Part shown: in pieces, positions 17,684 to 32,961 of the stretch
How positions within the stretch are numbered: position 1 is the stretch's first letter
How the letters are laid out: the number at the start of each line of letters is the position of its first letter
Assembly (NCBI GenBank): GCA_039030315.1
Contig: JBCCEL010000003.1
Coordinates: forward strand, 1 to 46,030
DNA: 46,030 nucleotides
Source: Pseudomonadota bacterium
Lineage (GTDB): Bacteria > Pseudomonadota > Alphaproteobacteria > Rhizobiales > CAJQND01
Direction: 5' to 3'
Notes under the pieces: generated by a model
Seen by the model: only the letters and a program-made list of their open reading frames with translations
The model's database searches: none
Told to the model about the DNA's origin: nothing
Position numbers and translations under genes: made by a program

Positions 17684-19498
17684 TTAGATGATCAAGGTGT
17701 CGGCGTCGAAGTATCCTTCGGCAGTCACGTCGAACACATCCTGCAGAACGACCACGTCCGTGAACGGGTTTCCATCCTGACCAAGATTGACCGAAACCGT
17801 TGTGCCACGGTCTCCCTGCGTGAACATCACCAGTTGATCCAGCTCCAGGGAACTGTCCAGCCCAAGTCCTGAGAAGTCCAGGACATCGGCGGTGCCGAAG
17901 TCCGCGATCCTGTCTGTCGACACTGCGCCCAGCTCGTTCAGGACATCGTCGGAGGCCCAGACGAACGTGTCGGCGCCGAGACCGCCGAACATCTTGTCGT
18001 TGCCGAAACCGCCGGAGATGATGTCGTTGCCCGTGCCGGCCGACAGGTAGTCATTGCCGAGACCGCCTGAAAGGACGTCATTGCCGGAACCGCCATAAAC
18101 ACGGTCGTTGTGCTCGCCGCCATGGACGATGTCATCGCCGGAACCGCCGACGACGCGATCCTGGCCGCTGCCGCCATACAGCTCGTCATTGCCGGAGTGA
18201 CCGTTCAGCGTATCGGCTCCGGATTCGCCGTCAATACGATCATTGCCGCTATTGCCGTTGAGCACGTCGTCGCCGCTCCCGCCGGTGAGAACGTCATCGC
18301 CGGAATTGCCGCTGAGCTCGTCATTACCGGAGCCGCCGCTCAAGGTATCCGCCCCTGAGCCCGCGGAGATGACGTCATCCCCGCCATCGCCGTGCAACTC
18401 GTCGTCGCCTGAGCCGCCGGTGATGGTGTCTGCGCCATCGCCTCCGGAGGCATAGTCGTGGCCGGAGTTGCCGGTGATGATGTCATTGCCTGAGTTTCCG
18501 GAGATCCGGTCATCACCGGAGTTCCCGGCCAGCGTGTCGTTGCCGTCGCCGCCCTGGATGATGTCATCTCCGCTGATCCCGTGGATTTCATCATCGCCGA
18601 TGCCGCCGTAGAGGATGTCGTCATCCGGCAGATTGCCGGTTCCATTGCTCTGCGGAAGAAGGGCGACCGTGTTCTGCTGGCCGATCTCGACCCGGATGAT
18701 GGTGTCGTCGTAGTCATTGTCGCCACCGCCATAGAGATCCTCGAAACCGATCAGCAGTTCGCCGGTGACGGTGCTGGCGCGGGACACCACGTGGGAGTAC
18801 TGGTCCGGGTTCGGGGCGTAATTGTCGTCGGCGGAGGCCTGGGAGTGGAAGATGCCGTAACCGTACTGGCTGCGGATATGCACTTCCTCGTTCGGACCAT
18901 CTCCGACCCACCACAGTTCGACCAATTGATCGCCGATGTTCCCGGGCTGCCCATCGGGCGTACGGAACTCGTAGTGGCCGGTATCGGCCGAAAGTGCTTC
19001 CCGGTTGAGATACCCTTTGCCATAGCCGTTCGAGACCACGAAAAACCCGAGCTGGGTCCCGTCGGCCACATCGAACGACGTCTGGCTCTGGTTCGGCACC
19101 AGATCGCCGCCGCTGCCGGCCTTTGACGCATTGGGGAACAGGATCTTGACATTACCAATGTTTCCGTCGGCAGAAATCTCGTAAACGCCGAGAGCGTTGC
19201 GGAAACCTGCGCCTTCATCGACGAAGGTGACCTTCGCCGTTGTCGCCTGCTGGATCACCAGTTCAGACATGTCGATATAGGCCGGCTTGCCGTTGCCATA
19301 GATGATGTCGTCGCCGCCCTGGCCGTAGATGAGGTCGTTGCCGGCGCCGCCATAGACCTCATCGTTGCCGCTGAGGGCGATGATCGTATCGTCGCCGCCG
19401 TAGCCGGCAAGGACTTCGGATCGTCCTGTGCCCCGCAGGCTGTCGTCCCCGCCTGTCCCGAGGACAGGCGAGATATTCCATTGCGTATCCACGCTCAT
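17684..19498 (-). CDS. RTX Ca2+-binding repeat protein with DUF4114-like domain (probable type I secretion substrate)
   Basis: Many GGxGxDxLx nonapeptides; TFVDEGAGFRNALGVY...GFEDLYGGGDNDYDD; C-terminal ADTFVW...DRIADF...DVLDFS; no Sec signal. Confidence 0.85.
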   Translation of the reverse strand: MSVDTQWNISPVLGTGGDDSLRGTGRSEVLAGYGGDDTIIALSGNDEVYGGAGNDLIYGQGGDDIIYGNGKPAYIDMSELVIQQATTAKVTFVDEGAGFRNALGVYEISADGNIGNVKILFPNASKAGSGGDLVPNQSQTSFDVADGTQLGFFVVSNGYGKGYLNREALSADTGHYEFRTPDGQPGNIGDQLVELWWVGDGPNEEVHIRSQYGYGIFHSQASADDNYAPNPDQYSHVVSRASTVTGELLIGFEDLYGGGDNDYDDTIIRVEIGQQNTVALLPQSNGTGNLPDDDILYGGIGDDEIHGISGDDIIQGGDGNDTLAGNSGDDRISGNSGNDIITGNSGHDYASGGDGADTITGGSGDDELHGDGGDDVISAGSGADTLSGGSGNDELSGNSGDDVLTGGSGDDVLNGNSGNDRIDGESGADTLNGHSGNDELYGGSGQDRVVGGSGDDIVHGGEHNDRVYGGSGNDVLSGGLGNDYLSAGTGNDIISGGFGNDKMFGGLGADTFVWASDDVLNELGAVSTDRIADFGTADVLDFSGLGLDSSLELDQLVMFTQGDRGTTVSVNLGQDGNPFTDVVVLQDVFDVTAEGYFDADTLII

Positions 19499-19534
19499 GG
19501 GAAATTCCTTCTTGGAGTTCGAGTTGGAGTGGAG

Positions 19535-20938
19535 TTACCAGCCGATGCCCTGGTAGCCAGGCTGCACCGGGAGGTCTTTGAAGAGCCGCACGAGGTCGAT
19601 GACTTTGACATCGCCGCCGCGGCGTCTAAGGGCTTCGCGGTACTGGTCCGAAGCGTGGGTCACCACGACCAGCTCCGCTGCGTCGAGCACGTCCTCGACG
19701 TCATTGCTCAGCATGCCTGGCAGCGCGTCCACCGTCGGCTTCAGATGGGGACAGACGCTGCTGACATAGGAGAACTGATCTGAAATCCGGGTCTCGGGGG
19801 TGATCGCCTCGTCATGTGCCGAAACCTCATAGCCTTCGCCCAGAAGCTGGTTCAGAACTTCCAGGATGGGGCTCTCGCGCAGGTCGTCCGTGCCGCGTTT
19901 GAAGGCGAGGCCGAGGAAGCCGACTTTCCTTGCGCCACTGCCGCGCACCATCTCGACAGCGTCGGCTATCTGCGTCTCGTTGGATTTGCCGAGGCTGTCG
20001 ATCAGCGGCACGTTGACGTCCAGCTCACCGGCGAGATGGGCGACCGCACGCACTTCTTTCGGCAGGCAGGAGCCGCCATAGGCAAAACCGGGCTTCAGAT
20101 AATAGGGCGACAGGTTCAGTTTCTGATCCTGCACGAATATGTTCATGACGTCGTGGCTGTCGATGCCGAGCGGCTTGCAGATGCGGCCGATCTCGTTGGC
20201 GAAGCAGACCTTGGTGGCGTGCCAGACATTGTCGGCGTACTTGACCATCTCCGCAGCTTCGATCGTCGTCAGCAACGGCGCTTCGTCGACCGGACGATAG
20301 ATGTTCGCCACAACGCGGGCCGTGTAGTCGTCGCTTGCACCGATGACGGTCTTGGGCGGGGCGCGGAAGTCTTCGATCGCGGTACCTTCACGCAGGAATT
20401 CCGGGTTGAAGCAGACCCCGAAATCGCGGCCCATCGTCTTGCCGGAGGCTGCCTCGATTTCCGGCACCATCACGTTCAGGGTCGTGCCGGGCGGAATCGA
20501 ACACCGCATGACGATGATGTGATGTTCGTATTTCAGGGCCAGAGCCTGTCCGATGGCACGAGCCGACTTGATGATGGCAGTGTAGTCGCAGCCGCCGCCT
20601 TCCTTGGTGGGCGTGCCGACCGAGACGAAAGTGACGTCGGTATCAACGACAGCTGCGATGAGATCGCCCGTCGTGCTGATGAGATGGTTGTCGACGCCTT
20701 CGCCGAGCAGATCGGTCAGGCCGGCCTCATGGATGGGAGACTTGCCGCTTCCGACGGCCGCGCGTTTGACGGGATCGATGTCGCAGCCGACGACGCGGTG
20801 CCCGAGACTGGAGAGGCAGGCGGTCGAGACGGCACCGACATAGCCCAGTCCAACCACGCTGATGGCCGGCAGGTTCTTGACGAGTTTGAGGTGAGCGGGT
20901 GTGGCCGTGGCCTGGTTGATTTGAGCGAGAGCGTTCAT
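19535..20938 (-). CDS. algD: GDP-mannose 6-dehydrogenase
   Basis: GLGYVG, FNPEFLREG, KLNLSPYYLKPGFAYGGSCLPKE, GLAFKRGTDDLRESP, terminal YQGIGW; alg8/alg44/algA context. Confidence 0.9.
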   Translation of the reverse strand: MNALAQINQATATPAHLKLVKNLPAISVVGLGYVGAVSTACLSSLGHRVVGCDIDPVKRAAVGSGKSPIHEAGLTDLLGEGVDNHLISTTGDLIAAVVDTDVTFVSVGTPTKEGGGCDYTAIIKSARAIGQALALKYEHHIIVMRCSIPPGTTLNVMVPEIEAASGKTMGRDFGVCFNPEFLREGTAIEDFRAPPKTVIGASDDYTARVVANIYRPVDEAPLLTTIEAAEMVKYADNVWHATKVCFANEIGRICKPLGIDSHDVMNIFVQDQKLNLSPYYLKPGFAYGGSCLPKEVRAVAHLAGELDVNVPLIDSLGKSNETQIADAVEMVRGSGARKVGFLGLAFKRGTDDLRESPILEVLNQLLGEGYEVSAHDEAITPETRISDQFSYVSSVCPHLKPTVDALPGMLSNDVEDVLDAAELVVVTHASDQYREALRRRGGDVKVIDLVRLFKDLPVQPGYQGIGW

Positions 20939-20979
20939 TTTCGAGAGCCTTCTGTTTGGGTTCAGCTGCTCTCACCAAC

Positions 20980-20994
20980 TCAACTGTCATGCCA
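20980..20994 (-). promoter_or_regulatory. Sigma-54 promoter of algD-RTX (variant -12)
   Basis: TGGCAT-GACAG-TTGA (GA rather than GC at -12). Confidence 0.6.
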
Positions 20995-21022
20995 ATCCCG
21001 GCATGAAAATAAAATCATTTAA

Positions 21023-21035
21023 TTTCAAAAGATTA
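21023..21035. promoter_or_regulatory. Putative IHF site
   Basis: TTTCAAAAGATTA, one mismatch to WATCAANNNNTTR, next to an A/T tract, between promoter and enhancer motifs. Confidence 0.55.
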
Positions 21036-21067
21036 GCTAGGGATCATCGGATTTTTCCACTGATCGT

Positions 21068-21135
21068 TTTTCATTGCAGAAACCGCCGTTTTCAAAATCG
21101 AAATGCCACCAATCCGGCGCTTTCGAAACTGAAAA
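21068..21135. promoter_or_regulatory. Putative enhancer (UAS) cluster A
   Basis: TTTTCAttgCAGAAA 21068-82, TTTTCAaaaTCGAAA 21089-103, TTTCGAaacTGAAAA 21121-35. Confidence 0.65.
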
Positions 21136-21138
21136 TGC

Positions 21139-23088
21139 TCAAGCGCCGGACGCCCGTCGGATTTCGAAAAGTGGGTTGCTGCCGAGAAAGCTCTGCAGGT
21201 TGCCGAAAGACCAGGATTTCGCAGTCTCACATTTGCCGTCAGCGCAGTGTGCGAGTTTCACGGTCAGCTGGAACGGTGCTGCCGGATAGAAGAGATTTGC
21301 GTAGGCCAGGAGTTGATGGCCAGAGGATGCTCCGGGAATCAATCTGGAATAGCGCTCCCGCAGTTTGGCTGTCGCGAAAGCATCCCATCCGGCGCCGGGC
21401 ATCCAGCGGCGCGCGCGCGGTCCCTTGCCGTCCAGGTCCCGGGCCAGGATCGCGCCCTGGTCCAGCAGACGGTCCAGCGTGGTCTGCAATGACCTGCGCT
21501 GCCGGGGGGCCAGGGCATGCCGGATGGCGCCGAGGCCCATCAGGCTGAGGCCGGCGTGGTTGACGTCTTCGACACGCCTTGGATTGGGTTCCGGTTTCCG
21601 GACGGGGCGGAGTTTGGAGATCCGGTCCGCCTTCTGCCAGCCCCGATAGTACCGGGGAACCCAATATCTCCAGAGCGCCCCTCGCGCGTCAGCGGACCAG
21701 GTTTGCACGAACGCATCCGCAATTCGGGATGCGCGGGCATTGAGGTGCGGACGTTTTTCGGCCGTGCCAACCCGGTCGAGCACCGTTGCCCAGGTCAGAT
21801 GCCAGTTCCAGGGCGCCCATATGCCATCGAAGCGGAACGGCGCTCCGTACTGGATGCGGTAGTGCCCCGTCCGCTCGTCGTAATGGCGTTCGTACGATCT
21901 GATGAGGCGCGAAGCGTTCCTCTGAACCTTGTGTTGAAGCCCCGGCGTGCATCTTTCGCCCAGGCGTTCACATGCCCGCAGCAGCGCGCCCGATATCATG
22001 GCCTGATTGATCTGAAACGACACCGGGCTGCGCCGGTCGATCGAGTAGATACGGGAGGCCCAGGCAGCAGCGGGATTGAACTCGCCGCCGATCCCCAGGT
22101 CCCTGTTCCGAACGGACAAGGTGTTGCGCATCGCCAGGGTGGCGAGATCGGCGAACACGCGGTGACCGGTCTTCTGATAAAGCGTCGCCAGGGTCAGGGT
22201 CCGATAGGACTGTGTCCAGCTTTGTTTGCCCGCTTCATCGGATGCAAGCGATGCCGGTTCGCCAAGTCCGCGCAAGAGCACACCGTTGATGGCGTGGAAG
22301 GCCATCTTCGCGGCGGGCGTTCCGGAGATCGAGAGGATCGCAGCTCCGTGTTGTCCCTTGAGGAGCCTGGGCGCCAGCGTCTCATCGGCTTCGGTCGCAC
22401 GGAGCTTCGAGACCTCACCGGACTTCATGTCCAGCTCGAGGAGGTCACTCCCCCGTTTGGGATCGCAATAGGCCTGAAGAAGAATGGAACGGCGCGTTGC
22501 CTTGGTGCCCAGAACTGCGCATCCCTCATAGGAGCCCAGCAGCATGCCATCCCGTGCGACGCGGTTGCCCTTGCGGGAATATCTGTAGAAGCGCGTGCGC
22601 TGCGCGCGCTTGTCGAACACGGACACGATCAATTCGTGCCGCCGGAAAACGAGGACACGGACGACCGCGAGCCGGGGCCACTCCAGGACTGGCTCGCCAT
22701 TATGGATCAGCTCGACCCTGGATTTGGGGCCTTTGGTTGTGCGGATGTAGACAAAGTCGCCGCCGGGACCGAAGCGGAAGCCGCCGATCCGCGACACGTC
22801 ATCGATGTCCTTGCCGTCAACGACGACCGTATCGCCGAACGTCACGGTCGGCCGGAACGCGCCCTTCTCCCAGAAGGACCGCAGCTCATAACCGCCCTTG
22901 CGCCCGACGCTGTTCAGCCCCCGCATGGAGACGCCGTTTTGGCTCGCAAGTCCTGTCGCCGTGTTGAAGGAGAAGCCCTTGCCGCTTTGCTCGATAATGT
23001 AACCGCCGCCCGCAAACGCCGGCGATGCGCCAACCAAAGCAGCGAGGGCGCAAGCTGCCGCTTGCGCCCGGTTTGGTGAGATCGACAT
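21139..23088 (-). CDS. Exported protein of unknown function (beta-rich N-terminus, aromatic/basic helical C-terminus)
   Basis: ATG 23088 just after the algI stop; signal peptide ending ASPAFA; last gene of the acetylation operon. Confidence 0.75.
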   Translation of the reverse strand: MSISPNRAQAAACALAALVGASPAFAGGGYIIEQSGKGFSFNTATGLASQNGVSMRGLNSVGRKGGYELRSFWEKGAFRPTVTFGDTVVVDGKDIDDVSRIGGFRFGPGGDFVYIRTTKGPKSRVELIHNGEPVLEWPRLAVVRVLVFRRHELIVSVFDKRAQRTRFYRYSRKGNRVARDGMLLGSYEGCAVLGTKATRRSILLQAYCDPKRGSDLLELDMKSGEVSKLRATEADETLAPRLLKGQHGAAILSISGTPAAKMAFHAINGVLLRGLGEPASLASDEAGKQSWTQSYRTLTLATLYQKTGHRVFADLATLAMRNTLSVRNRDLGIGGEFNPAAAWASRIYSIDRRSPVSFQINQAMISGALLRACERLGERCTPGLQHKVQRNASRLIRSYERHYDERTGHYRIQYGAPFRFDGIWAPWNWHLTWATVLDRVGTAEKRPHLNARASRIADAFVQTWSADARGALWRYWVPRYYRGWQKADRISKLRPVRKPEPNPRRVEDVNHAGLSLMGLGAIRHALAPRQRRSLQTTLDRLLDQGAILARDLDGKGPRARRWMPGAGWDAFATAKLRERYSRLIPGASSGHQLLAYANLFYPAAPFQLTVKLAHCADGKCETAKSWSFGNLQSFLGSNPLFEIRRASGA

Positions 23089-23102
23089 GGATGAGATCCG
23101 TT

Positions 23103-24596
23103 CTAGAAGTTGAAGTAGATGAATTCGGTCAGGTCCCCGAGGCGGTAGACCTGCAGCAGGGCCACCGCGAAAACACCGCTCACCGCCATTGCCCAGCGCC
23201 GGCTCGGGCGCCAGCTCACGGCTGCCGACCGGCGGATATGCTGCGCCGCGTCGATGACGGGGCGGTACTTGCGGACGAGTTCGATGGAGTTCGGGGCGTA
23301 GAAGACAACCAGCGCCAGAGCGATGAACTGCACCCACGGCAGGCCGGTTTGCGCCAGTACGCCCGACCAGGCCTTCACATCGTAGAGCTCAGTGAAGCCC
23401 AGCATACCGGACATGACGGCCAGCGCCCCATCCAGAGTCTCCGCCCGGAACGGCACCCAGGCGAAGATGACCGCAAGCATGGTGAGACCCTGAGCAAGGC
23501 TCGAGGAAAGTGCGCGGGTGAGCGGAGAGACGTCCTTCCGGCGCGGAAACACTGCCGACCAGGCATGGTTGATTGCAAGGTAAACACCGTGCAGTGCGCC
23601 CCAGAGGACGAAGTTCCAGCTCGCTCCGTGCCAGAGACCGCCAAGCACCATGGTCGCGAAAAGGTTGAGATAACGGCGGAACCTGCCGTGGCGATTGCCG
23701 CCGAGCGGTATGTAGAGATAGTCACGCAGGAAGCGGGAGAGCGTGATGTGCCAGCGGCGCCAGAAGTCGACAATGCTGGTGGCCTTGTAGGGCGAGTTGA
23801 AGTTGATCGGCAGGCGGATGCCGAACATGCGCGCCAGCCCGAGGGCCATGTCGCAATAGCCGGAGAAATCGAAATAGATCTGGAACGTATAGGCCAGCGC
23901 GCCGATCCAGGCGGCCTCGGCCGGCACGGCGTGGCCCGCATCCGCCAGGCTGAAGACCGATGTTGCCAGCGGCGCGATGCCGTCGGCCAGAACGATCTTC
24001 TTGAAGAGCCCGATGGCGAACAGAGTCCCGCCAACTGCCAGGTTCAGGAACAGTTTGCTCTGAAAGACCTTCAGGGTGAACTGCGGGATCGTGTCCTTCT
24101 GCAGCACGATCGGTCCGGCGATCAACTGCGGGAAGAACACCACGAACAGGCAGTACCTGGAGAAGTCGCACTCGCTGATCTCCCCGCGCCATGTGTCGCA
24201 AAGGAACGATATCTGCTGGAACGTGAAGAACGAGATGGCAAGGGGTAGGATGATGCCAAGTGCCGGGAGGTCAGCACCCGGCAGCAGGTTGATATTGCCG
24301 ATAAGGAAGTCGGCATATTTGAAATAGGCAAGCGTGGCGAGGTTCCCGGCGATACCGGCTGCCAACACCGGCTTTGACCTGGTCCGCAGGATCATCCGGT
24401 GCAGGCCGAAGTTCGCCAGCACCGAACCGATGAGCAGCAGCAGGTGGATCGGGCTCCACCAGGCGTAGAACGCCAGAGAAGCGGCGATCAGCCACCAGAT
24501 GATGGCACTTTCCCGGCCCCAGGCGCGCAAGGCGAGATAGCCCAGCAGCACCGGCGGCAGAAACAGGTAGATGAATTCAAGGGAACTGAAGACCAT
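23103..24596 (-). CDS. algI: MBOAT O-acetyltransferase (AlgI-like)
   Basis: MVFSSLEF, PLAISFFTFQQIS, FFPQLIAGPI, QIYFDFSGYCDMA, FWRRWHITLS, GLWHGA, FIYFNF. Confidence 0.9.
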   Translation of the reverse strand: MVFSSLEFIYLFLPPVLLGYLALRAWGRESAIIWWLIAASLAFYAWWSPIHLLLLIGSVLANFGLHRMILRTRSKPVLAAGIAGNLATLAYFKYADFLIGNINLLPGADLPALGIILPLAISFFTFQQISFLCDTWRGEISECDFSRYCLFVVFFPQLIAGPIVLQKDTIPQFTLKVFQSKLFLNLAVGGTLFAIGLFKKIVLADGIAPLATSVFSLADAGHAVPAEAAWIGALAYTFQIYFDFSGYCDMALGLARMFGIRLPINFNSPYKATSIVDFWRRWHITLSRFLRDYLYIPLGGNRHGRFRRYLNLFATMVLGGLWHGASWNFVLWGALHGVYLAINHAWSAVFPRRKDVSPLTRALSSSLAQGLTMLAVIFAWVPFRAETLDGALAVMSGMLGFTELYDVKAWSGVLAQTGLPWVQFIALALVVFYAPNSIELVRKYRPVIDAAQHIRRSAAVSWRPSRRWAMAVSGVFAVALLQVYRLGDLTEFIYFNF

Positions 24597-24610
24597 GGTT
24601 CTGCCTCGTC

Positions 24611-25798
24611 TCAAGTCTGGGAGTTGTTTTCGCCGGCCTGCTTGAGCAGGGCCTGCAGGAGGGTCTTGGAGCCGGTGTGGCCAAGCGAACTGCCCCTGCG
24701 GGCGAGTTTCAGGGCTCCGGCCATGTCTTTCGGCGCAAGCTTGCCTTCGGCACAGATGCGGGCGAGCTCTTCCATGGCTCCGGCATGGGAAGCCTTCACA
24801 CCCTTCTGGAACCAGGCAACGGCGCCGTCTTTCTTCAGGCCGTGCAGTTGCTTGAGATGCAGCCGGCCAAGTTTGGTCATTGCCCCGCCATGTCCGGCTT
24901 CCGCGGCGCGCTTGAGCCAGCCGATTGCCTCATCGGCACTCTTCGGTCCGGCTTTATCGACCAAAAGCAGGTTCGCCAGATCGTGCATCGCCCCGGGGTT
25001 ACCGAGATGACTGGCGTGGCGGAACCAGTAGAAAGCTCTTTCTCTCGAGCGCTGGACGAATTCGCCATCGCGGTAAAGCCGCCCCAGGGTCTTGGCCGGG
25101 CTGCCGGAGCCGGAGCGGGCTTTCGTCTTCAGGGCATTGATTGCGCGGGCCGCCAAGGCCCGGGCCCGTTCCGGATCCTTCCTGACGCCGTGATGGCCCT
25201 TCAGCAGGATACGGGCATACTTCAGAGAAACCGCCTCAAAGCCGGCCCTCGCAGCCCCTTCGTAGTGATACAGCGCGCGGCTCTGATCGGCGTCCACGCC
25301 GATGCCGCGCGTAAAGTGGCCAGCCAGCTGCACGTGTGCCTTCTCATAACCCCAGTCCAGCGCCTTCAGGAACCACTCGACAGCGATGCGGTTGCAATCC
25401 GGTCCCGATGATCTCTGATAGAGCCGGCCCAGTTCGAAGGCCGCTTCACCGCGCAGGGAAAACTTGAACTGAACGGCGCGCAGAAGCGCCATGCGGCCCT
25501 TCTCCAGATCGGGCGACACGCCCCAGCCGCGGGACAGTATTTTTCCGTGATGAAACAGCGCGTGCGGATAGCCCTGATGGGCATAGCGTTCGATGATCTC
25601 GGCTGCCTCGGTCCACTTGCCCAGCTTCTGCAGGCCGCGGGCCTGGTTCAGGTGTTCGGTGACGAGCGGATCAGTGGGCGGTTCCTTGGCAAGGTCCGGA
25701 AGTCCGCGCCAAAAGAACACGGTTGCGCAGAGGGCGCACAGGACCACGAAGGGCGCGACATTCACGAGAAACAGCTGAGGGTTTTCAGGCCGGGTCAT
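24611..25798 (-). CDS. Sel1-like repeat protein (AlgK-like scaffold)
   Basis: N-terminal TM; Sel1 repeats (WFLKALDWG, WFRHASHLG, WLKRAAEAG); alg context. Confidence 0.8.
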   Translation of the reverse strand: MTRPENPQLFLVNVAPFVVLCALCATVFFWRGLPDLAKEPPTDPLVTEHLNQARGLQKLGKWTEAAEIIERYAHQGYPHALFHHGKILSRGWGVSPDLEKGRMALLRAVQFKFSLRGEAAFELGRLYQRSSGPDCNRIAVEWFLKALDWGYEKAHVQLAGHFTRGIGVDADQSRALYHYEGAARAGFEAVSLKYARILLKGHHGVRKDPERARALAARAINALKTKARSGSGSPAKTLGRLYRDGEFVQRSRERAFYWFRHASHLGNPGAMHDLANLLLVDKAGPKSADEAIGWLKRAAEAGHGGAMTKLGRLHLKQLHGLKKDGAVAWFQKGVKASHAGAMEELARICAEGKLAPKDMAGALKLARRGSSLGHTGSKTLLQALLKQAGENNSQT

Positions 25799-27077
25799 TT
25801 GCACGCCTCCAGATCCTGCAGTTCGAGCCTTCGGTCATCGTCACGATTCCGTCTGTAACTGTGTCGGAAACCGCCTTCCCATGGACGGGACAGGCAATAC
25901 CGGCCCGTGACCTGGCAGCAGCGTTTTCGACAGAAACCGCATTGGTCAGCAGCTGGCCGACCTCGCCCACGATGTTGCGGGCGGCACGGGCGTTGAAGTG
26001 ATAGGCATCGGTAAAGTTGCCGAGATTACGGGTGAACGGGTTGTCGAAATCCAGATCGACGACCGGCGCCAGGGCGGCGAGCCTCAAGCGCAGGCGGCGG
26101 TCGAGATCCGAGCGGCCAAACTCTGCGATCCGCGCCTGCATTTCGGGGATCGTCGGCGGAATCACGAAAACCAGGTTGACGCCGTTCGCCCTGCTCCACT
26201 CGGCAATCTCGGCAATCTTCGCCCAGAGGTCCTCTGAAAACCTGAAACGCTTCCAGTCGGACTTTCCGTTCTTGCGGACCTGCCTGGCAAAGCGGGCCGG
26301 AAGATCACGATTGATGGAAATGTTCTGCCAGAGCCTAGCCCAGCGGCCATACCCGTAGCCGTGGCCCTGCCCGCGGCCATAGACGGGATAGGGAACCGGC
26401 TCCCGCAGTTCCGGCAGGCGGCAGCCAAAGCATACGTCAGGCTGCAGCAGGGTCCCGAGGCTGGTGCGGCCGGGCGAGCCCAGATCGGCCGCTCTGGCGG
26501 GTGTGGTGAAACCCGGAAGCAGACCACGCAGCGTTGCCAACTGGCGTGGATATCTTGCCTCGACCTGCCGCCAGGATATTCGGGTGACGAACCAGCTGGT
26601 GAAATACTTGACCGGGTTTCCTGCAAGCTTCAGGGCCTCCGGCACACGGTTCATGCCAGACTTGTGGGCCGGATCGAAACTGCGGAGCTGGATGCCGACC
26701 ACCAGGTTCTTCGGCTTCGGCTGCGTCTTGAGATAGCGGAAGGTCTCGTGGATCTCGTGGATCGTCGCGCCGCCATAGGCGAAGTTGAAGGCGCGCTTGA
26801 TGCCGAGCTCGCTCCAGTATTTGTCGCGCAAGGCGCGCGCGCGACTATCGCCGAGAATGATCGTTTCCGGCGGCCGTTTCCTGGAATGGGCAATGACCTT
26901 CCACAATGGATAGTGGGCCTTTTCGCTGATCTTTTTCTTGGCGAGCCCGAGCGGCAGTCCGCCAAGCCGGTCATACGGATCGACGGCAAGGTTAAGCGCG
27001 ATGGGAAGCGCCCCGAGGCACGCCGATGCCGCCAGAGCGGCGATATACGGTTTTGGAATGGACGAGCGTTTTGACAT
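25785..27077 (-). CDS. SGNH-like O-acetyltransferase partner (AlgX/AlgJ/DltD-type)
   Basis: N-terminal anchor + VDPY; ILGDSR, FNFAYGG, FTDAYHFN (DxxH). ATG 27077 chosen because ATG 27128 lies inside the sigma-54 promoter. Confidence 0.72.
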   Translation of the reverse strand: MSKRSSIPKPYIAALAASACLGALPIALNLAVDPYDRLGGLPLGLAKKKISEKAHYPLWKVIAHSRKRPPETIILGDSRARALRDKYWSELGIKRAFNFAYGGATIHEIHETFRYLKTQPKPKNLVVGIQLRSFDPAHKSGMNRVPEALKLAGNPVKYFTSWFVTRISWRQVEARYPRQLATLRGLLPGFTTPARAADLGSPGRTSLGTLLQPDVCFGCRLPELREPVPYPVYGRGQGHGYGYGRWARLWQNISINRDLPARFARQVRKNGKSDWKRFRFSEDLWAKIAEIAEWSRANGVNLVFVIPPTIPEMQARIAEFGRSDLDRRLRLRLAALAPVVDLDFDNPFTRNLGNFTDAYHFNARAARNIVGEVGQLLTNAVSVENAAARSRAGIACPVHGKAVSDTVTDGIVTMTEGSNCRIWRRANDPA

Positions 27078-27117
27078 TTCAAGCTTGCTTCGCAGTGGGT
27101 GGTCTGCACCTCCTCCC

Positions 27118-27132: not shown

Positions 27133-27159
27133 TTGTTAGCAAACGTATTTATTTAATAA

Positions 27160-27172
27160 AAACAATAACTTA
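27160..27172. promoter_or_regulatory. Putative IHF site
   Basis: AAACAATAACTTA, one mismatch to consensus, preceded by an A/T tract. Confidence 0.55.
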
Positions 27173-27193
27173 CCAGATCATCACTACGCGCCC

Positions 27194-27250
27194 TTTCGAT
27201 ATTGAAAACCACCGGTTTTCAATATCGAAATCGCGGTTTCAATATCCGGC
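27194..27250. promoter_or_regulatory. Putative enhancer (UAS) cluster B
   Basis: TTTCGAtatTGAAAA 27194-208 and TTTTCAataTCGAAA 27216-230 (17-bp perfect inverted repeat, 3-nt spacer); partial third copy over the alg8 stop. Confidence 0.7.
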
Positions 27251-28831
27251 AAAGGACCTCAGCAGCGTGCCGGACGGAATTTCGATGAGCCGGGTATAGT
27301 GCACGGTCGAGAGCACCAGCAGAGCTGCCGCCAGTGCCGTGCACCAATTGTCCATGGCGTTGCGGAAGAGTTGCAGGAGCGCATCGCCGCTTGCAGCAGC
27401 GGTCTGGTTGCCCCGGTTCGACCAGCGCTGTTTGGAGAGACGGAATATGCAGTAGACCTTCACGGAGGCATTGATGAGCTGATTGAGATAGAGAATCCAG
27501 GGATAGGCCATCTGGATGCGGCGGGAGTAGCCGAACAGGAAAAGCGAGAGCAGCATGCGGCTGAGCGCGATGAAGATGAGATAGGACAGGATGTAGGTCG
27601 GGCCCTGCAGCAGCGTGGCAGCGACGGCCAGGACCGGGCTTACCAGCATGGTCCACATCGAAAGGCGCTGATCCACCAGGCACCACCAGATGAAGAAGGG
27701 CATCCGGTGCGGACCGAGCTTGATGGCCCGGGCACCGTTGCGCAGCATGTTGCCGGACCAGCGCCGGAAGTTCTGCACCATCCGGTCCATGCCGGAGCCT
27801 TCGATCACCTCGACCGTGTAGCCGAGGGCATCCGGCACGTAACGCATGTGGGCGCCATGCTTCAGCATGAAGTACCAGGTGCTCTTGTCGTCGCCTGAGA
27901 GGAAGCGGAAGTTCCCCCAGAGCCAATGCTCCAGGTGATCGGCTTCAAGCAACCGGATGAACTCCAGCTGCAAAAGATTTCTGGCCCGAAAGACGGACAT
28001 GCGGCCGGTCAAGGTCAGCACCCGGCCGGAAAGCGCATGTGATTGCATCGCCAATCGGCGCTGGGCGAAGCGCATTTTCAGCCAGGTCTCGATCCAGCGC
28101 GGGCCAATGCAGATGACCTCCTCGTCGGTCGTGCAGGCCTGCAGGTCCGGGTAGAGCTTGAACAGCGGCATGCAGCGGCTGATCGCCCCTTCGGCGAGAA
28201 TGAAGTCGCCGTCCATGAAGACGACCAGATCGTCCTCATCGATCGGCAGCCGGCACATGGCGCGCAGAACCAGGCCGATCGCCGCCCGTTTGCCGGACAC
28301 ATTTTGCCGGATAATGCGCAGGGTGATGTCGGTGTCGCCCGCCTCGCGCCGCAGAAAGTCTTCTATGATGTCTTCATCGAAGCGGTCGGAGGAGCCGAGC
28401 CAGATCGTGCCCGGGACACCGGAGTTCCTGATCTCCAGCAGAATGGAGCGGACCACCTTTTCCGTGATCGAGCGGTGCTCCTTGTAGGTGGTCATCATGA
28501 AATGCATGTGCCGGGGGCGCCAGCCAGACTCCCAGATCTTGCGCCCCTCTTCGCGCATGCGCGGGTAGACGTACTTGCCGTAAATGACCGCCCGCACCGC
28601 GTGTGTGAACCACCAGCCGTAACGCCAGATGCCGAGCGCGCCGATCACGAAGGTGATCTGCGCCACCTCCCGATCCCAGATGCTGTTTGGCAGGGTCAGG
28701 ACGGCAATCAGGCAGCAGCCGAAATAGAGCGCGATCTTGAAGAGCGCGAAGGGTGTCCACTTCCGCCAGCCCGTCGGCCAGTCGGTCGGATCGTCGAGAT
28801 TGGCGACCTTATCAAGCTTCACTGCCGGCAT
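27239..28831 (-). CDS. alg8: GT2 alginate polymerase (Alg8-like)
   Basis: IGALGIWRYGW, GKRAAIG, MDGD, VLTLTGRMSVFRA, FLSGDDKSTWY, RRWSGNMLR, DQRLSMWT. Confidence 0.88.
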   Translation of the reverse strand: MPAVKLDKVANLDDPTDWPTGWRKWTPFALFKIALYFGCCLIAVLTLPNSIWDREVAQITFVIGALGIWRYGWWFTHAVRAVIYGKYVYPRMREEGRKIWESGWRPRHMHFMMTTYKEHRSITEKVVRSILLEIRNSGVPGTIWLGSSDRFDEDIIEDFLRREAGDTDITLRIIRQNVSGKRAAIGLVLRAMCRLPIDEDDLVVFMDGDFILAEGAISRCMPLFKLYPDLQACTTDEEVICIGPRWIETWLKMRFAQRRLAMQSHALSGRVLTLTGRMSVFRARNLLQLEFIRLLEADHLEHWLWGNFRFLSGDDKSTWYFMLKHGAHMRYVPDALGYTVEVIEGSGMDRMVQNFRRWSGNMLRNGARAIKLGPHRMPFFIWWCLVDQRLSMWTMLVSPVLAVAATLLQGPTYILSYLIFIALSRMLLSLFLFGYSRRIQMAYPWILYLNQLINASVKVYCIFRLSKQRWSNRGNQTAAASGDALLQLFRNAMDNWCTALAAALLVLSTVHYTRLIEIPSGTLLRSFAGY

Positions 28832-30419
28832 GATCTTCTCGTGACCAGAAATTGGCAATGCGCGCGAACAGATCGTTCGTCATACGCCGGTCGAAGATGA
28901 CCACAGCCGGCAGTCCGGCCCGGATTTCCCGCTTGCGATCTCCGGCGGACAGGAGGAGCGAGACGGAGGCCGTACGCTCGCCATTCGCCTTCCAGGTATA
29001 TTGCGACGATTTTAGATCCAGGTGCCCGGACTTCCGGTTGATACCGATCACCGTCGCCTCCACGTGCCGGCCGAGGGCCGGAACGTAGACTCTTGCCCTG
29101 TCGTTCATGCCAATCCGCAGCACTTCGTTTTGGTCGAGGAATGCCGTCACCGTGGGAGGTACGTCCTGCTCCAGAGCGAGCACCGGCTGCTCCTTCGAAA
29201 TGGCCAGGCCGGCGGCGACCGGCATGGAAACAATTTGACCGTCGAAAGGGGCGCGGATTACACGCGCTGCCTGCATCTGCCTGAGCCCTTGCAGCTTGGC
29301 CCGGGCGAGCTTGAGCCGGCCATGCGCCTCGTCCAGATCCAGTGCCAGCATATCGAGGTCGACAACGAATTCCTTGTGATTGTAGTGGCGCTTGTCCGAT
29401 GCGGAATGCATGACGGTGGCCTGTTCTACCGAAAGCTCAAGCTCGCGCACCTGGGCCGCAGCGCGGAGCTGGCGGGACCTCGCCTCCTCCAGAGCCTTGG
29501 CGTTCGAGAAGCCCTTCTTATGCAGCGTGGCGACGCGGGCGTAGTTGGCATCCGCTGCGTTCAGGGCAACGCGCCGCGCCTCAAGCCGCGCGCGGGCGAC
29601 GTCGAGATCGGTCTTGTTGATGGTCTGATAGAGTTTCAGGCGCTCCGCTTCGATCCGGTAGCGCTCCTTCGCGCGCAGGTACTTCGCGCCGGCATCCTTT
29701 GCTTCGGCGTCAGCCGCCATGATCTGCGCATCGAGGCGCGGGTCTTCGATCTCCGCAACGACGGCGCCCCGGCGGACATGATCTCCCAGGGAGTAGCGGA
29801 CAGATCGCAAAACTCCGTCGACCGGCATCCGCAGCGTCTGCACAGGAACGGAGACCACCGCCGACTGAACCTCCAGCCGCATGATCGAGGAGTAGGTGAG
29901 CAAACCGCCATATCCGAATACCGCCGACCCCAGCAGGATATAGAGGCAGGACATCAGGATCGTCTTGACCGGCCAGCGCGAAACCGGCGCGTCCGATTGC
30001 GGGTTCGGGTCCGGCTGGGTCGAGATTGGCGTCACCGGAATGTCGATGCGGCAGATTGCGTCTTCCACCGTCCCCATCTGCCCGCGGATCAGGTCCTCGA
30101 TGAAGTGAGACATCAGATCCCGGGACCGCTCGGGCACCTCGGTGTACTCGAACGCGACGGTCCTCTCGGTCTCAACGAGGCGGACAACACGCGCCTTGAG
30201 CTCAAAGCCGATGTCGAACCCCTGGAACGGCAGAACCAGGTTAAGCTGCAGTTCGGTGCCGATGGCCGGCAAATCACCGGCAACACCGTCGAGCCGCAGG
30301 CCGCCGAGGCTCCAGTCCGTCGCACGGTACTGAACGGCATCCCCTCCCATCTTCACATGCAGCGGAGCGGTGACGCGGTGGTGGCGTCTCTGGCAGGGGC
30401 GTTCGCGAATGACTTTCAT
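28812..30419 (-). CDS. alg44: PilZ + membrane-fusion co-polymerase (Alg44-like)
   Basis: c-di-GMP motifs QRRHHR (RxxxR) and DWSLGG; TM; HlyD-like coiled coil and IRAPFDG; GGAGA RBS before ATG 30419. Confidence 0.85.
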   Translation of the reverse strand: MKVIRERPCQRRHHRVTAPLHVKMGGDAVQYRATDWSLGGLRLDGVAGDLPAIGTELQLNLVLPFQGFDIGFELKARVVRLVETERTVAFEYTEVPERSRDLMSHFIEDLIRGQMGTVEDAICRIDIPVTPISTQPDPNPQSDAPVSRWPVKTILMSCLYILLGSAVFGYGGLLTYSSIMRLEVQSAVVSVPVQTLRMPVDGVLRSVRYSLGDHVRRGAVVAEIEDPRLDAQIMAADAEAKDAGAKYLRAKERYRIEAERLKLYQTINKTDLDVARARLEARRVALNAADANYARVATLHKKGFSNAKALEEARSRQLRAAAQVRELELSVEQATVMHSASDKRHYNHKEFVVDLDMLALDLDEAHGRLKLARAKLQGLRQMQAARVIRAPFDGQIVSMPVAAGLAISKEQPVLALEQDVPPTVTAFLDQNEVLRIGMNDRARVYVPALGRHVEATVIGINRKSGHLDLKSSQYTWKANGERTASVSLLLSAGDRKREIRAGLPAVVIFDRRMTNDLFARIANFWSREDHAGSEA

Positions 30420-30449
30420 TTGGCAGGTCTCCATGTCGCCCGAACAGGA

Positions 30450-30464
30450 GCAACCGGCATGCCA
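30450..30464 (-). promoter_or_regulatory. Sigma-54 promoter of alg44-alg8
   Basis: TGGCAT-GCCGG-TTGC(T), canonical. Confidence 0.8.
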
Positions 30465-30513
30465 GCGAATCCGGCCTCTTTCTCACCGGAAATGGGAAGA
30501 CGGGGCCTCCAGA

Positions 30514-30551
30514 TTTCGAAATTCGAAATCCGGTCTTTTCGAATTTTGGAA
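30514..30551. promoter_or_regulatory. Putative enhancer (UAS) cluster C, shared by divergent promoters
   Basis: TTTCGAaatTCGAAA 30514-28 (perfect arms) and TTTCGAattTTGGAA 30537-51. Confidence 0.65.
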
Positions 30552-30663
30552 TCCCGGGCGAAACCGGCATGGCGCAAAACGAGCGTGCCAATCTGCAAAA
30601 TCTCCCGGAATTCTGCGGATCACGCCCATGCCGGCACCCGTGACACTCACGCCATGCCAGTTC

Positions 30664-30678
30664 TGGCCAATCCCTTGC
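30664..30678 (+). promoter_or_regulatory. Sigma-54 promoter of algA-pmm
   Basis: TGGCCA-ATCCC-TTGC (GG-N10-GC). Confidence 0.65.
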
Positions 30679-30732
30679 GACTGGAGGGCCAAGCGCGGCG
30701 TGCCATCGCCGCCCGGTCCAAAGGAGATGCAA

Positions 30733-32199
30733 ATGACCTCAAACAAAATCACCCCGATCATTCTTGCCGGCGGTGCCGGCACCCGTCTGTGGCCGGTGTC
30801 GCGCGAAGAAAGCCCGAAGCAGTTCTGCCGGCTGCTCGACGGACAAAGCCTGTTCCAGGCGACAGCAAAGCGTGTCTCCGACCCGGCACTGTTCAACGCT
30901 CCGATCATCGTCACCGGCGCCCAATACGCCGGCCTGGCCGAACAGCAGCTTGCAGAGTACGGACTGGAAGCCTCTGCGATCGTCTGCGAACCCATGGGCC
31001 GCGACACCGCACCCGCGATCGCCGCCGCTCTGGCTGCCGCGCGTCCGGGTCCGGTGGCGGAAAACTATCTTGTGCTGCCGTCCGACCATGCCATTGAAGA
31101 CGACGAAGCCTTGAAGACTGCCATCCGGACGGGCCGCGATCTCATCCGGCACAGCCGGCATCTCGTGACCTTCGGCATCGCGCCCAGCCGGCCCGACACA
31201 GGCTTCGGATACATCCGGGCCGAACGCGACGAACTCCGGCCGGGTGTCCATGCGGTCAGCCGCTTCATCGAGAAGCCGGATGCCGCTCGGGCGGCGAACC
31301 TCATCCGCGAGGCGGGCACATCCTGGAACGCCGGCATCTTCCTGTTCAACGGTCGCGACATGCTCGATGAGCTGGAGCGGCATGCCCCCGAGCTTCTCTA
31401 CATGGTCAGGAAGAGCCTCGCGAACGGCACCATGTCCGGCAGCAAGGTCTTCCCCGATGCAGCCGCTTTCGCGAAGGCGCCGAAGCTTTCCATCGACTAC
31501 GCCGTCATGGAGCACACCGAAAGAGCGGCCGTAGTTCCGGTCGATCCCGGCTGGAGCGATCTCGGCGCCTGGTCGGCCATCTGGGAGCGCGGGGAAAGCG
31601 ATGTGGTCGGCAATGTTCTCGAAGGTGATGCCATCGCGGTCAACAGCACCGGCTCGCTCGTCCGCACCGACGGGCCGACAGTGGCCATTGCCGGCGTGGA
31701 TGACCTGGTGGTGGTCGCCAACCGCGACGCCGTGCTTGTGGCCAGGAAGGACGATGCACAGTCGGTCAAGACACTGGTTGAAACCATGAAGGCGGAAGAT
31801 CGCGTCGAGCAGAAGCGTCACGCCGGCGAGGACCGTCCGTGGGGCCGGTTCGATTCCATCGACCGCGGCGAGCATCACCAGGTCAAGCGTATCAGGGTGC
31901 ATCCCGGTGGCCGTCTGTCGCTGCAGTATCACCATCACCGTTCGGAACACTGGGTCGTGGTGTCCGGCACTGCCCAGGTGACTGTCGGCGACAATGTCAT
32001 GGCTCTTGGTCCTTGCGAGCAGGTCTTCATCCCGCAGGGCGAGGTGCACCGCCTGGAAAACCTCGGCTCCGAACCGGTTGAAATCATTGAGGTTCAGTAC
32101 GGAGACTACCTTGGCGAAGACGACATCGTGCGTGTTGAGGATGTCTACGGCCGCGAAGCCGTTCCCGCCGCACTCGACGAAAATCTCGCAGCCGCGTAA
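30733..32199 (+). CDS. algA: Mannose-1-phosphate guanylyltransferase / mannose-6-phosphate isomerase (AlgA/ManC)
   Basis: ILAGGAGTRLWPVSR, PKQF, FIEKP, SIDYAVME, WSDLG, cupin RPWG...SLQYHHHRSEHW; AAGGAG RBS. Confidence 0.93.
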   Translation: MTSNKITPIILAGGAGTRLWPVSREESPKQFCRLLDGQSLFQATAKRVSDPALFNAPIIVTGAQYAGLAEQQLAEYGLEASAIVCEPMGRDTAPAIAAALAAARPGPVAENYLVLPSDHAIEDDEALKTAIRTGRDLIRHSRHLVTFGIAPSRPDTGFGYIRAERDELRPGVHAVSRFIEKPDAARAANLIREAGTSWNAGIFLFNGRDMLDELERHAPELLYMVRKSLANGTMSGSKVFPDAAAFAKAPKLSIDYAVMEHTERAAVVPVDPGWSDLGAWSAIWERGESDVVGNVLEGDAIAVNSTGSLVRTDGPTVAIAGVDDLVVVANRDAVLVARKDDAQSVKTLVETMKAEDRVEQKRHAGEDRPWGRFDSIDRGEHHQVKRIRVHPGGRLSLQYHHHRSEHWVVVSGTAQVTVGDNVMALGPCEQVFIPQGEVHRLENLGSEPVEIIEVQYGDYLGEDDIVRVEDVYGREAVPAALDENLAAA

Positions 32200-32208
32200 G
32201 GACACATC

Positions 32209-32961
32209 ATGGACCGCATGTATCTCTTCGACGTCGATGGCACGCTGACCGAACCCCGTCAGCCCATCGACCCCGATTTTGCCCAGTTCTTCGAGCGCTT
32301 TTGCAAATCGCACCCGGTCTATCTCGTCTCCGGCAGCGATCTGCCCAAGCTGGAAGAGCAGTTGCCGAGATCAATCCTCGCTCACGCAAAAGGTGTTTTC
32401 ACCTGTTCGGCGGCAGAACTCTGGGTCGATGGCAAGGCCAGCTATCAGCTCGATCATGAGTTCCCGAAGGAACTTGTGGAAGCCCTTGAGGGTTTTGTCG
32501 ATCTCAGCCAGTATCCGCGCCGTTTCGGCAATCATATCGAGTTCCGGACCGGCATGATCAATTTCAGTGTCGTTGGCCGGAACGCCGAGCACAGCGACCG
32601 GCAGACCTATTTCGCCTGGGACCAGCAGGAGGGCGAACGCAAGGAATTCATCCGCCGCTTCGTTCAGACCTACACGGACTACGAGGCCTCGGCGGGTGGC
32701 GAGATCAGCATCGATATTGTGCCGAAGGGCTGGAACAAGTCCCGGGCACTGGACGTTCTCAAGCAGGATTTTCCGGATGCAACGATCACCTTCTTCGGGG
32801 ACCGCATGGCGCCGGGCGGAAACGACTATCCATTGGCAGAAGCCCTGAAGGCAGATTCCCCCCGGCATCAGGCCGTTTCGGTCGGCACGTTCTACGAAAC
32901 CTGGCGGCTGCTCAGCGCCTTATCCGCACCAGGACATGAGGTTTTCCGGCAGGCGTCCTGA
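32209..32961 (+). CDS. HAD-IIB phosphomannomutase, eukaryote (PMM2/Sec53) type
   Basis: LFDVDGTLT, VSGSD, IEFRTGMINFSVVGR, GGEISID, PKGWNK, FFGD...GGNDY. Confidence 0.85.
   Translation: MDRMYLFDVDGTLTEPRQPIDPDFAQFFERFCKSHPVYLVSGSDLPKLEEQLPRSILAHAKGVFTCSAAELWVDGKASYQLDHEFPKELVEALEGFVDLSQYPRRFGNHIEFRTGMINFSVVGRNAEHSDRQTYFAWDQQEGERKEFIRRFVQTYTDYEASAGGEISIDIVPKGWNKSRALDVLKQDFPDATITFFGDRMAPGGNDYPLAEALKADSPRHQAVSVGTFYETWRLLSALSAPGHEVFRQAS

Follow-up and report, generated by a model that had tools for sequence, protein, structure and literature searches.

An alginate-type synthase cluster with non-orthologous periplasmic parts and a putative secreted lectin in an alphaproteobacterium and its relatives

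Which polymer is made, and by what route would it leave the cell, when an alginate-type synthase is encoded without most of the parts that accompany it in the known systems? This question is raised by a gene cluster at positions 17684–32961 of contig JBCCEL010000003.1, from the metagenome-assembled genome of an alphaproteobacterium of the Rhizobiales (GCA_039030315.1). The window, as we call the whole stretch of 46,030 nucleotides that was analysed, is the entire contig (C3) of this genome, which measures 6.17 Mb in 600 contigs and is 88% complete. Nearly all that is known of alginate synthesis comes from Pseudomonas and Azotobacter. The mechanism of this canonical system is summarised in PMC9734138.

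Our answer is that the synthase core of the cluster is ordinary, but its periphery, its lectin and its control are not. We consider it probable, though by no means assured, that the cluster encodes a synthase controlled by cyclic di-GMP (c-di-GMP) and sigma-54, which makes an O-acetylated polymannuronate, uses periplasmic parts that are not orthologous to the canonical ones and is accompanied by a secreted lectin of its own. The outer-membrane route is not encoded nearby. As far as sequence can tell, an acetylated polymannuronate-like polymer is the best-supported reading.

Gene calls in the window were based on an open reading frame (ORF) listing combined with Pfam and NCBIfam scans, and the likely true starts of four genes were taken from relatives and database records (Alg44-like protein, ATG at 30419; family 2 glycosyltransferase, GT2, 28831; SGNH protein, 27077; Sel1 protein, 25798). 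A first-pass annotation of the sequence had named algD, alg8, alg44, a Sel1 gene, algI, an SGNH gene, algA and a phosphomannomutase gene, and the scans recovered each of them in place. It had overlooked two genes within the same region, one encoding a 649-amino-acid protein that we call U649 (21139–23088) and one encoding an RTX protein (17684–19498), as well as the sigma-54 control.

An alginate-type synthase core

Six genes, overlapping or closely spaced, run along the minus strand from 30419 to 21139 in the order Alg44-like protein, GT2, SGNH protein, Sel1 protein, MBOAT O-acyltransferase and U649. After a gap of 200 nucleotides downstream of U649 they are followed by a pair encoding GDP-mannose 6-dehydrogenase (GMD) and the RTX protein. 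The manC and phosphomannomutase (PMM) genes diverge from the six-gene unit, with a terminator-like hairpin (32990–33010) after PMM, and beyond them lies a pair encoding an NtrC-family regulator and a hybrid histidine kinase. This layout makes the four transcription units suggested earlier plausible. The cluster contains a single glycosyltransferase, which we count in favour of a synthase-dependent polymannuronate.

To obtain a canonical reference we drew on a sample of the phylum comprising 401 genomes, 19 of which, the own genome included, had a match to the window GT2; three matches were 56–59% identical and 15 were 32–40% identical. The 20 kb around one 38% match (genome G087) served as canonical alg operon for BLASTP comparisons, and G087 served as control genome. 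By Pfam, this region reads algD-alg8-alg44-algK-algE-algG-algX-algL-algI-algJ, followed by AlgF and AlgA.

Four proteins of the window align well with this operon. The GMD (467 amino acids; 19535–20938, minus strand) is 44% identical to canonical AlgD over 446 amino acids (E 1.6e-133), and its closest match in the PDB is AlgD (1mfz, E 9.3e-118), compared with only 1.7e-72 for the best UDP-glucose dehydrogenase. The MBOAT protein (23103–24614, minus strand, likely start ATG 24596; 118 bits to the MBOAT model) is 43% identical to AlgI over 378 amino acids (E 1.3e-85). The bifunctional-type ManC/PMI protein (30733–32199, plus strand; TIGR01479, 545 bits, above the cut-off) is 45% identical to AlgA over 472 amino acids (E 3.9e-144). 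The GT2 (530 amino acids; 27239–28831, minus strand, with the ORF extending to 28858) is 38% identical to Alg8 over 465 amino acids (E 5.9e-100); a further alignment of the two gave 39% identity over 431 amino acids with 2 gaps (E 5e-101), and the blocks DGD, TGRMSVFRA, GDDKS-WY and RW-GN-LR are common to both. By these comparisons, the AlgD, Alg8, AlgI and AlgA of the window are true orthologues of the canonical alg proteins.

The Alg44-like co-polymerase (535 amino acids from ATG 30419; 28812–30419, minus strand, with the ORF extending to 30434) carries the Pfam domains PilZ and HlyD_3. In BLASTP it was only weakly similar to canonical Alg44 (20.5% identity over 234 amino acids, E 5e-4), but a profile of 28 sequences matched Alg44 with an hhalign probability of 98.3% (E 1.8e-14) over the N-terminal 218 columns, which span the PilZ domain, the linker, the membrane helix and the first periplasmic strand. 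Its RRHHR and DWSLGG correspond to the c-di-GMP motifs RxxxR and DxSxxG. The solved PilZ domain of Alg44 in the PDB was not matched by sequence. The protein is ~145 amino acids longer than canonical Alg44, and the extra stretch, located between the first periplasmic strand and HlyD_3, matches the helical region of EmrA in a profile search (4tko, E 1.2e-13, query 189–460). The gene order also differs, being 44-8 in the window and 8-44 in the canonical operon.

This core is widely conserved. A scan for relatives of the GT2, with one genome per species, returned 314 stretches, and the best 80 are 67–92% identical to the window GT2; counts out of 44 given below refer to the 44 loci that have full 10-kb flanks. 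The five-gene core of Alg44-like protein, GT2, SGNH protein, Sel1 protein and MBOAT protein is complete and syntenic in 42 of these 44 loci (singly: GT2 44, Alg44-like and MBOAT 43 each, SGNH and Sel1 42 each). The PMM (32209–32961, plus strand; PF03332, 111 bits), present in 16 of the 44 loci, is of the eukaryotic HAD-IIB type and not of the AlgC/ManB alpha-phosphohexomutase type; it would fill the place of AlgC here.

Missing accessories, periplasmic proteins and a putative lectin

Compared to canonical alginate systems, the window cluster lacks AlgK, AlgE, AlgG, AlgX/J, AlgL, AlgF and an AlgC-type mutase. The absence of algE, algG, algL and algF had been noted in the first-pass annotation, and we looked for these genes elsewhere in the own genome and in four cluster-carrying relatives, whose loci are labelled Anderseniella, Pelagibius, Labrenzia and Parvibaculaceae and three of which are chromosome-level. 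The AlgE porin model (PF13372, Alginate_exp) had no match in the own genome or in three of the four relatives, versus 350 bits in the control genome; the fourth relative is discussed below. Canonical AlgG, used as a single query, found nothing in the own genome or the four relatives and was found in the control genome. The models for AlgX/AlgJ (PF16822), AlgF (PF11182) and AlgL (PF05426) likewise had no match in these five genomes and matched in the control genome. Hence, apart from one partial match in a relative, the earlier observation stands, and none of AlgE, AlgG, AlgL and AlgF was detected elsewhere in the own genome. For AlgK (NF038194), which was searched in the own genome and not in the relatives, the best match reached 44.5 bits against a cut-off of 700. 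Since AlgG was not found, the product is probably an acetylated polymannuronate without guluronate.

The Sel1-repeat protein (395 amino acids; 24611–25798, minus strand, with the ORF extending to 25804) had been described as AlgK-like. This holds for the type of repeat (Sel1, 91.8 bits) but not for membership of the AlgK family, as the protein scored only 36 bits against NF038194 with its cut-off of 700, and E 0.19 against canonical AlgK in BLASTP. Canonical AlgK is a TPR lipoprotein, whereas the window protein begins with a hydrophobic helix and its sequence contains no lipobox, so that an inner-membrane anchor is probable.

The neighbouring putative SGNH-clan protein (430 amino acids; 25785–27077, minus strand, within a 447-amino-acid ORF extending to 27128) has an N-terminal anchor and is DUF1574-like, unlike the canonical AlgX and AlgJ. 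The block I motif G93-D94-S95-R96 and the block V motif D374-x-x-H377 are invariant in the 26 sequences aligned out of 61 available, and PF07611 (DUF1574) matches 20 of these 26 members (best E 2.6e-6). A 2022 review assigns DUF1574 to the SGNH clan and gives no known function, activity or structure for it (PMC9487903). In the PDB, a profile search yielded only chance-level rows, BLASTP against canonical AlgX and AlgJ gave nothing, and a search of the Atlas returned only unnamed clusters, one of them with 12% DUF1574. A complex prediction for the two periplasmic parts, Sel1 and SGNH, scored 0.53, versus 0.00 for the best of three controls; between runs, at least 65% of contacts were the same, and the partners had a predicted local distance difference test (pLDDT) score of at least 74. 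The mark applied in these predictions is passed by 58 of 80 solved complexes and by 2 of 110 mismatched pairs, and scores of 0.60 or lower include only 7 of the 80 solved complexes and both passing mismatches, which makes the support for a Sel1–SGNH complex weak.

U649 (21139–23088, minus strand) belongs to no Pfam or NCBIfam family, and the window protein had no Pfam match. Its AlphaFold2 model (pLDDT 90.3, from an alignment of 23 of 31 sequences) predicts a signal peptide, a beta-propeller at residues ~30–256, an (alpha/alpha)6 six-hairpin barrel at residues ~256–606 and a small C-terminal beta domain. In Foldseek, the propeller matched TolB and prolyl oligopeptidase, and the whole protein mostly matched propellers, next to spurious long alignments to complement proteins. 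With VIA-align, the barrel matched members of glycoside hydrolase (GH) families GH105, GH76 and GH8, cellobiose 2-epimerases, polysaccharide lyase family 5 (PL5) and other lyases at Z 15.1–11.7. The top match was 7tem (Z 15.1, root-mean-square deviation 3.5, 283 residues aligned), and others were YteR (Z 14.1), the GH8 endoglucanase 6vc5 (Z 13.4) and the PL5 lyase Smlt1473 (Z 12.5). A profile search of PDB sequences gave nothing meaningful. The family counts 325 representatives among 1.84 billion proteins, and a Y-E-D-x-(N/S)-H-A-G block is nearly invariant in it; among 53 distant relatives there were weak matches to GH76 (5 of 53), GH88 (3 of 53) and GlcNAc_2-epim (2 of 53). The predicted fold makes U649 a candidate for the polymer-processing enzyme of the system, with hydrolase, lyase and epimerase not told apart.

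The RTX protein (604 amino acids; 17684–19498, minus strand) consists of short N-terminal RTX repeats, a central DUF4114 domain (44.3 bits, cut-off 27) and a long C-terminal RTX beta-roll region; its GGxGxD nonapeptide repeats score 267 bits to HemolysinCabind in 12 stretches. No catalytic or pore-forming domain was found in the protein. The non-repeat core of 205 amino acids (18668–19282) is kept in all 26 aligned homologues, in which an acidic loop E-D...G-G-D-x-D-x-D-D is invariant. This loop appears similar to the DNDYND calcium loop of LecB. The AlphaFold2 model of the core (pLDDT 84.6) was searched with Foldseek, and the first 17 PDB matches were all lectins of the LecB/PA-IIL/BclA/BC2L-C/CV-IIL group (probability 0.80–0.98). 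DUF4114 has been described as a calcium-dependent sugar-binding domain (PMC9109919) and was shown experimentally to be the mannose-binding domain of an Acanthamoeba protein (PMC11934332).

The gene for the RTX lectin is the most frequent accessory gene of the cluster (32 of the 44 loci), and its linkage is kept although its place varies: it follows GMD in some loci, precedes the Alg44-like gene in others and elsewhere follows U649 on the opposite strand, at least three arrangements in all. From its sequence features, the protein is likely a type I-secreted, calcium-dependent lectin. The DUF4114 domain, the weak LecB-type fold matches, the conserved core and the kept linkage together lead us to regard the protein as a secreted, polymer-directed lectin and not as a substitute epimerase. 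An identity as AlgE-type epimerase or toxin was considered and rejected, the hemolysin and serralysin matches in NCBIfam being far below their cut-offs and lying on the repeats.

Control and distribution of the cluster

A sigma-54 type -24/-12 element, TGGCATGCCGGTTGCT (30449–30464, minus strand), lies ~30 nucleotides upstream of the Alg44-like start. It is the sole match in the window with at most one mismatch to the sigma-54 consensus; elements of this class have the form GG-N10-GC. An equivalent element precedes the Alg44-like gene in 65 of 72 loci, whereas the two controls, the opposite strand and the interior of the gene, gave 12 and 0 of 72, respectively. Matches with at most two mismatches numbered 22 over the whole window, versus 23.6 expected, which is chance level, and the element therefore carries weight only through its position and conservation. 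TTCGAAA-type palindromes (30512–30560), ~50–100 nucleotides upstream of it, may be activator binding sites; a hairpin scan also flagged this hairpin-forming repeat. Scans for sigma-70 promoters and terminators in the window were at or below chance level, except for the hairpin after PMM.

The cluster is adjoined by an NtrC-family sigma-54 activator (33015–34472, minus strand; Sigma54_activat, 234.6 bits), with a REC domain, an AAA+ sigma-54 interaction domain and a Fis-type helix-turn-helix, and by a hybrid histidine kinase (34497–37610, minus strand), in which Pfam recognised a Tll0287-like sensor, PAS, HisKA, HATPase, REC and Hpt domains. Genes of these types adjoin the cluster in 26 and 31 of the 44 loci, respectively. 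In the canonical system algD is AlgU-dependent. The sigma-54 promoter and the NtrC-type two-component pair would take the place of the regulation found in Pseudomonas.

Among the best 80 matches, carriers of the cluster were mostly marine Alphaproteobacteria. Anderseniella was nearest (91–92%), followed by Pelagibius, Denitrobaculum, Roseibium/Labrenzia, Hoeflea, Sneathiella, Emcibacter, Cohaesibacter, Hellea and a few metagenome-assembled genomes of Colwellia, Kangiella and Bermanella. Cultured carriers include Roseibium sediminicola CAU 1639, Roseibium sp. MMSF_3544, MMSF_3247 and MMSF_3412, Pelagibius sp. Alg239-R121 and Coralliovum pocilloporae. Of 400 other genomes of the class, sampled evenly, 4 had a GT2 of the window type (62–81%), 1 was intermediate (56%) and 13 were distant and Alg8-like (31–41%). 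A window-type GT2 in one complete alphaproteobacterial genome spans the start of a circular record (G706:C1:2-1168 and 3684793-3685176) and was thus counted as two matches. Three loci (L068, L082 and L086) have minimal clusters of Alg44-like protein, GT2, GMD and RTX protein only. In the pair L068 and L082, a contig binned as Anaerolineae (Chloroflexota) has a cluster near-identical to that of an alphaproteobacterial metagenome-assembled genome (end branches 0.016 and 0.015); a binning error is the likely cause. No further gene family was common to more than 4 of the 80 related loci, in a search by greedy longest-ORF calling of at least 180 amino acids, from which short or overlapped genes can escape.

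A quick maximum-likelihood tree (IQ-TREE) was built from 47 rows, namely the window, 28 of 76 clean ORFs and, out of the phylum sample, 18 matches; one row was dropped for an internal stop. In this tree, a long branch with full support divides the window type and the 56–59% type from canonical Alg8. Gammaproteobacterial GT2 copies nested among the alphaproteobacterial ones. These copies come from metagenome-assembled genomes of Colwellia, Bermanella and Kangiella (loci L025, L037, L041 and L050), where the gene order is unchanged. This combination of nesting and shared order suggests transfer between classes, unless the contigs were mis-binned. Locus L110 (G332:C13:25000-44900) is a hybrid, in which a window-type GT2 (56%) occurs with canonical AlgI, AlgJ, AlgX-like and AlgF. 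It also contains a stand-alone PMI/cupin fragment, a GMD and an 864-amino-acid RTX protein with DUF642 and DUF6923, without the lectin domain. Locus L111 (G168:C71:9000-28900) belongs to a genome of the same order as the window. Its cluster, AlgD-Alg8-Alg44...AlgG-AlgL, is canonical-like, and its Alg8 is 45% identical to the canonical one; hence, both cluster types occur in this order.

To the left of the cluster, at 11835–17381, lie genes for a 980-amino-acid protein with a WD40 beta-propeller and a caspase domain (Peptidase_C14), a TPR protein and a truncated Hsp70/MreB-like ATPase. In the related loci none of the three accompanies the cluster, the TPR and Hsp70-like neighbours occurring in 0 of 80. 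Further out, a TIR-domain protein of 427 amino acids (2626–3909, minus strand) lies in the sole low-GC patch of the window (2001–4000, GC content 0.476 versus ~0.61) and may be part of a defence island that was acquired.

A full-text literature search, which did not reach subscription journals and supplements, returned no account of this cluster type and nothing that joins alg8/alg44 or mannuronic acid/mannuronate polymers with the carrier genera. The first-pass annotation had cautioned that similar clusters may already be predicted. This is borne out to the extent that JGI labels two relatives 'glycosyltransferase Alg8', but a description was not found in the literature covered.

Proposed mechanism, rival explanations and meaning

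We propose that PMM, ManC and GMD would supply GDP-mannuronate, which the Alg8-type GT2 would polymerise into a mannuronate homopolymer upon binding of c-di-GMP to the PilZ domain of the Alg44-type protein. In the periplasm, the AlgI-type MBOAT protein and the anchored DUF1574-like SGNH protein would O-acetylate the chain, possibly held by the anchored Sel1 protein. U649 may cut or otherwise process the chain, a role played by AlgL or BcsZ elsewhere. Transcription of the operon would start at its sigma-54 promoter, under the control of the adjacent NtrC-type regulator and hybrid kinase. Outside the cell, the LecB-like calcium lectin, presumably type I-secreted, may bind the polymer or tie it to surfaces.

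For export, the structure of the Alg44-type protein points to a TolC-type channel, to which its long EmrA/HlyD-like helical insertion may dock. EmrA-type hairpins dock to TolC in tripartite pumps. With no export gene in the window or recurrent nearby, the idea of export through TolC rests on this one domain feature. The earlier proposal of an Alg8/Alg44 synthase working with substitute parts is supported in part, by the orthologous core and the absence of the canonical accessories, but no substitute export part can be named. A bolder, joint version of the mechanism holds that the polyuronate exits through a TolC-type channel, that U649 founds a new family of mannuronan enzymes and that the RTX-LecB lectin assembles a calcium-dependent matrix. 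Here, the helical hairpin of the Alg44-like protein would dock to TolC as in a drug pump, replacing the TPR-plus-porin route, and U649 would be an epimerase or a depolymerase. The TPR-plus-porin route is used for alginate, cellulose, Pel and PNAG. We consider it unlikely that all three elements of this version are correct.

Several results weigh against an acetylated polymannuronate made with these parts. No outer-membrane protein, TolC, porin or type I secretion gene was found in the window, and none recurs in the related loci. An identity of 38% to Alg8 leaves the sugar and the linkage unfixed, and GMD and ManC lie within 10 kb in only 27 and 24 of the 44 loci, respectively. The barrel of U649 is about as close to hydrolases as to lyases and epimerases, no family among them stands out, and U649 is missing from 19 of the 44 loci (present in 25). 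As a homologue of AlgL it was rejected (hhalign probability 0.04%, BLASTP E 0.066), but it may have an AlgL-like role. The SGNH protein of the window itself has no Pfam match at E up to 1, and it was rejected as a homologue of AlgJ/AlgX (hhalign probability 3.5% against AlgJ). The fold matches of the lectin are weak (E 3e-3 to 3e-2, template modelling (TM) score by target 0.39–0.55), and no LecB was reached in the PDB with its sequence profile. In one relative, G404, the Alginate_exp model matched weakly and over part of its length (29.9 bits), at a site far from the cluster. Moreover, as the genome is 88% complete, absences from it are not proof.

These points leave room for other explanations. 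If the GT2 made a polymer other than mannuronan, the GDP-mannose genes might serve another pathway. The long, fully supported branch between the GT2 clade of the window and canonical Alg8 in the quick tree would fit this, and so would the absence of GMD within 10 kb from 17 of the 44 loci and of ManC from 20. We nevertheless find this distinctly unlikely. Alg8 is the reciprocal best match of the GT2 within the canonical operon, the blocks are conserved, and GMD is linked even in the minimal clusters. In addition, the hybrid locus L110 couples a window-type GT2 with AlgI, AlgJ, AlgX-like and AlgF, which ties this clade to alginate-type acetylation. Alternatively, the product might be a true alginate with guluronate, and U649 a new kind of mannuronan C5-epimerase instead of a depolymerase. 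Uronate lyases and C5-epimerases share chemistry, and some of these enzymes are alpha/alpha barrels (heparosan and dermatan epimerases). Several invariant Arg, Tyr and His residues of U649 would fit an anionic substrate, and 2 of 10 clusters in the Atlas structure search were named 'D-glucuronyl C5-epimerase' (TM by row 0.62 and 0.60). Such names are, however, automatic, and no Glce-type structure occurred among the top 50 VIA rows. Neither did any Pfam match connect U649 to such an epimerase family, the distant relatives showing only the weak matches to GH76, GH88 and GlcNAc_2-epim. Considering also the 19 loci without U649, we regard an epimerase as quite improbable.

The lectin, finally, might not act on the polymer of the cell itself but serve as an adhesin for foreign glycans, such as those of algal or host surfaces, with only co-regulation or co-inheritance joining it to the cluster. 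Lectins of the LecB family bind neutral mannose or fucose, to judge from the titles of the PDB matches, and most carriers come from marine samples. For the window itself, no RNA run was listed as containing the sequence, and the only run listed, with 0.95 of the words, was DNA of a marine metagenome that may be the source sample. Yet, the linkage of the gene survives in at least three arrangements, and no accessory gene is more frequent in the 44 loci. An adhesin of this kind is conceivable but doubtful, and we favour a dedicated lectin for an acetylated polymannuronate.

In many respects such a system would resemble canonical alginate. It shares orthologous AlgD, Alg8, AlgI and AlgA and an Alg44-type partner with PilZ and membrane-fusion domains and c-di-GMP motifs, and also the synthase-dependent design, a putative acetylation module of MBOAT and SGNH-type proteins and a periplasmic protein of the Sel1/TPR type. 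In contrast to canonical alginate, it adds the RTX lectin and U649, and a sigma-54 promoter with an NtrC-type pair. Azotobacter vinelandii secretes the mannuronan C5-epimerases AlgE1-7, which, as we propose for the RTX protein of the window, are RTX-repeat proteins of the type I route tied to an alginate system. However, the window protein lacks their beta-helix catalytic A-module, and its sole non-RTX domain is DUF4114/LecB-like; for this reason, we interpret it as a binder and not as an epimerase. With LecB (PA-IIL) it shares the DUF4114 signature, an acidic, putative calcium loop and the weak Foldseek matches and, by analogy, perhaps the role of a matrix lectin beside an exopolysaccharide. 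LecB binds the matrix polysaccharide Psl. The window domain differs from LecB in its size (~205 amino acids with insertions versus ~115 amino acids) and in being embedded in a putative RTX secretion substrate. U649, a candidate enzyme, is comparable to AlgL and to the GH8 enzymes BcsZ/CMCax of cellulose systems in its (alpha/alpha)6 barrel and in the place of its gene within a synthase-dependent operon. Unlike AlgL, to which it has no sequence relation, it adds a TolB-like propeller and has no Pfam model.

Our results indicate that, in many marine Alphaproteobacteria, the alginate synthase core is accompanied by a periplasmic and outer-membrane apparatus of another kind. How a synthase-dependent polymer crosses the outer membrane without the TPR/porin pair is testable in cultured Roseibium, Pelagibius and Coralliovum. 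The cluster also offers a way into the role of the DUF1574 SGNH proteins and of an orphan family that combines a propeller with a six-hairpin barrel, and it bears on the question of whether bacteria secrete lectins that are dedicated to one exopolysaccharide. If our reading is correct, an acetylated polymannuronate made without an epimerase would be of use as a material, and marine gels and particles might contain it.

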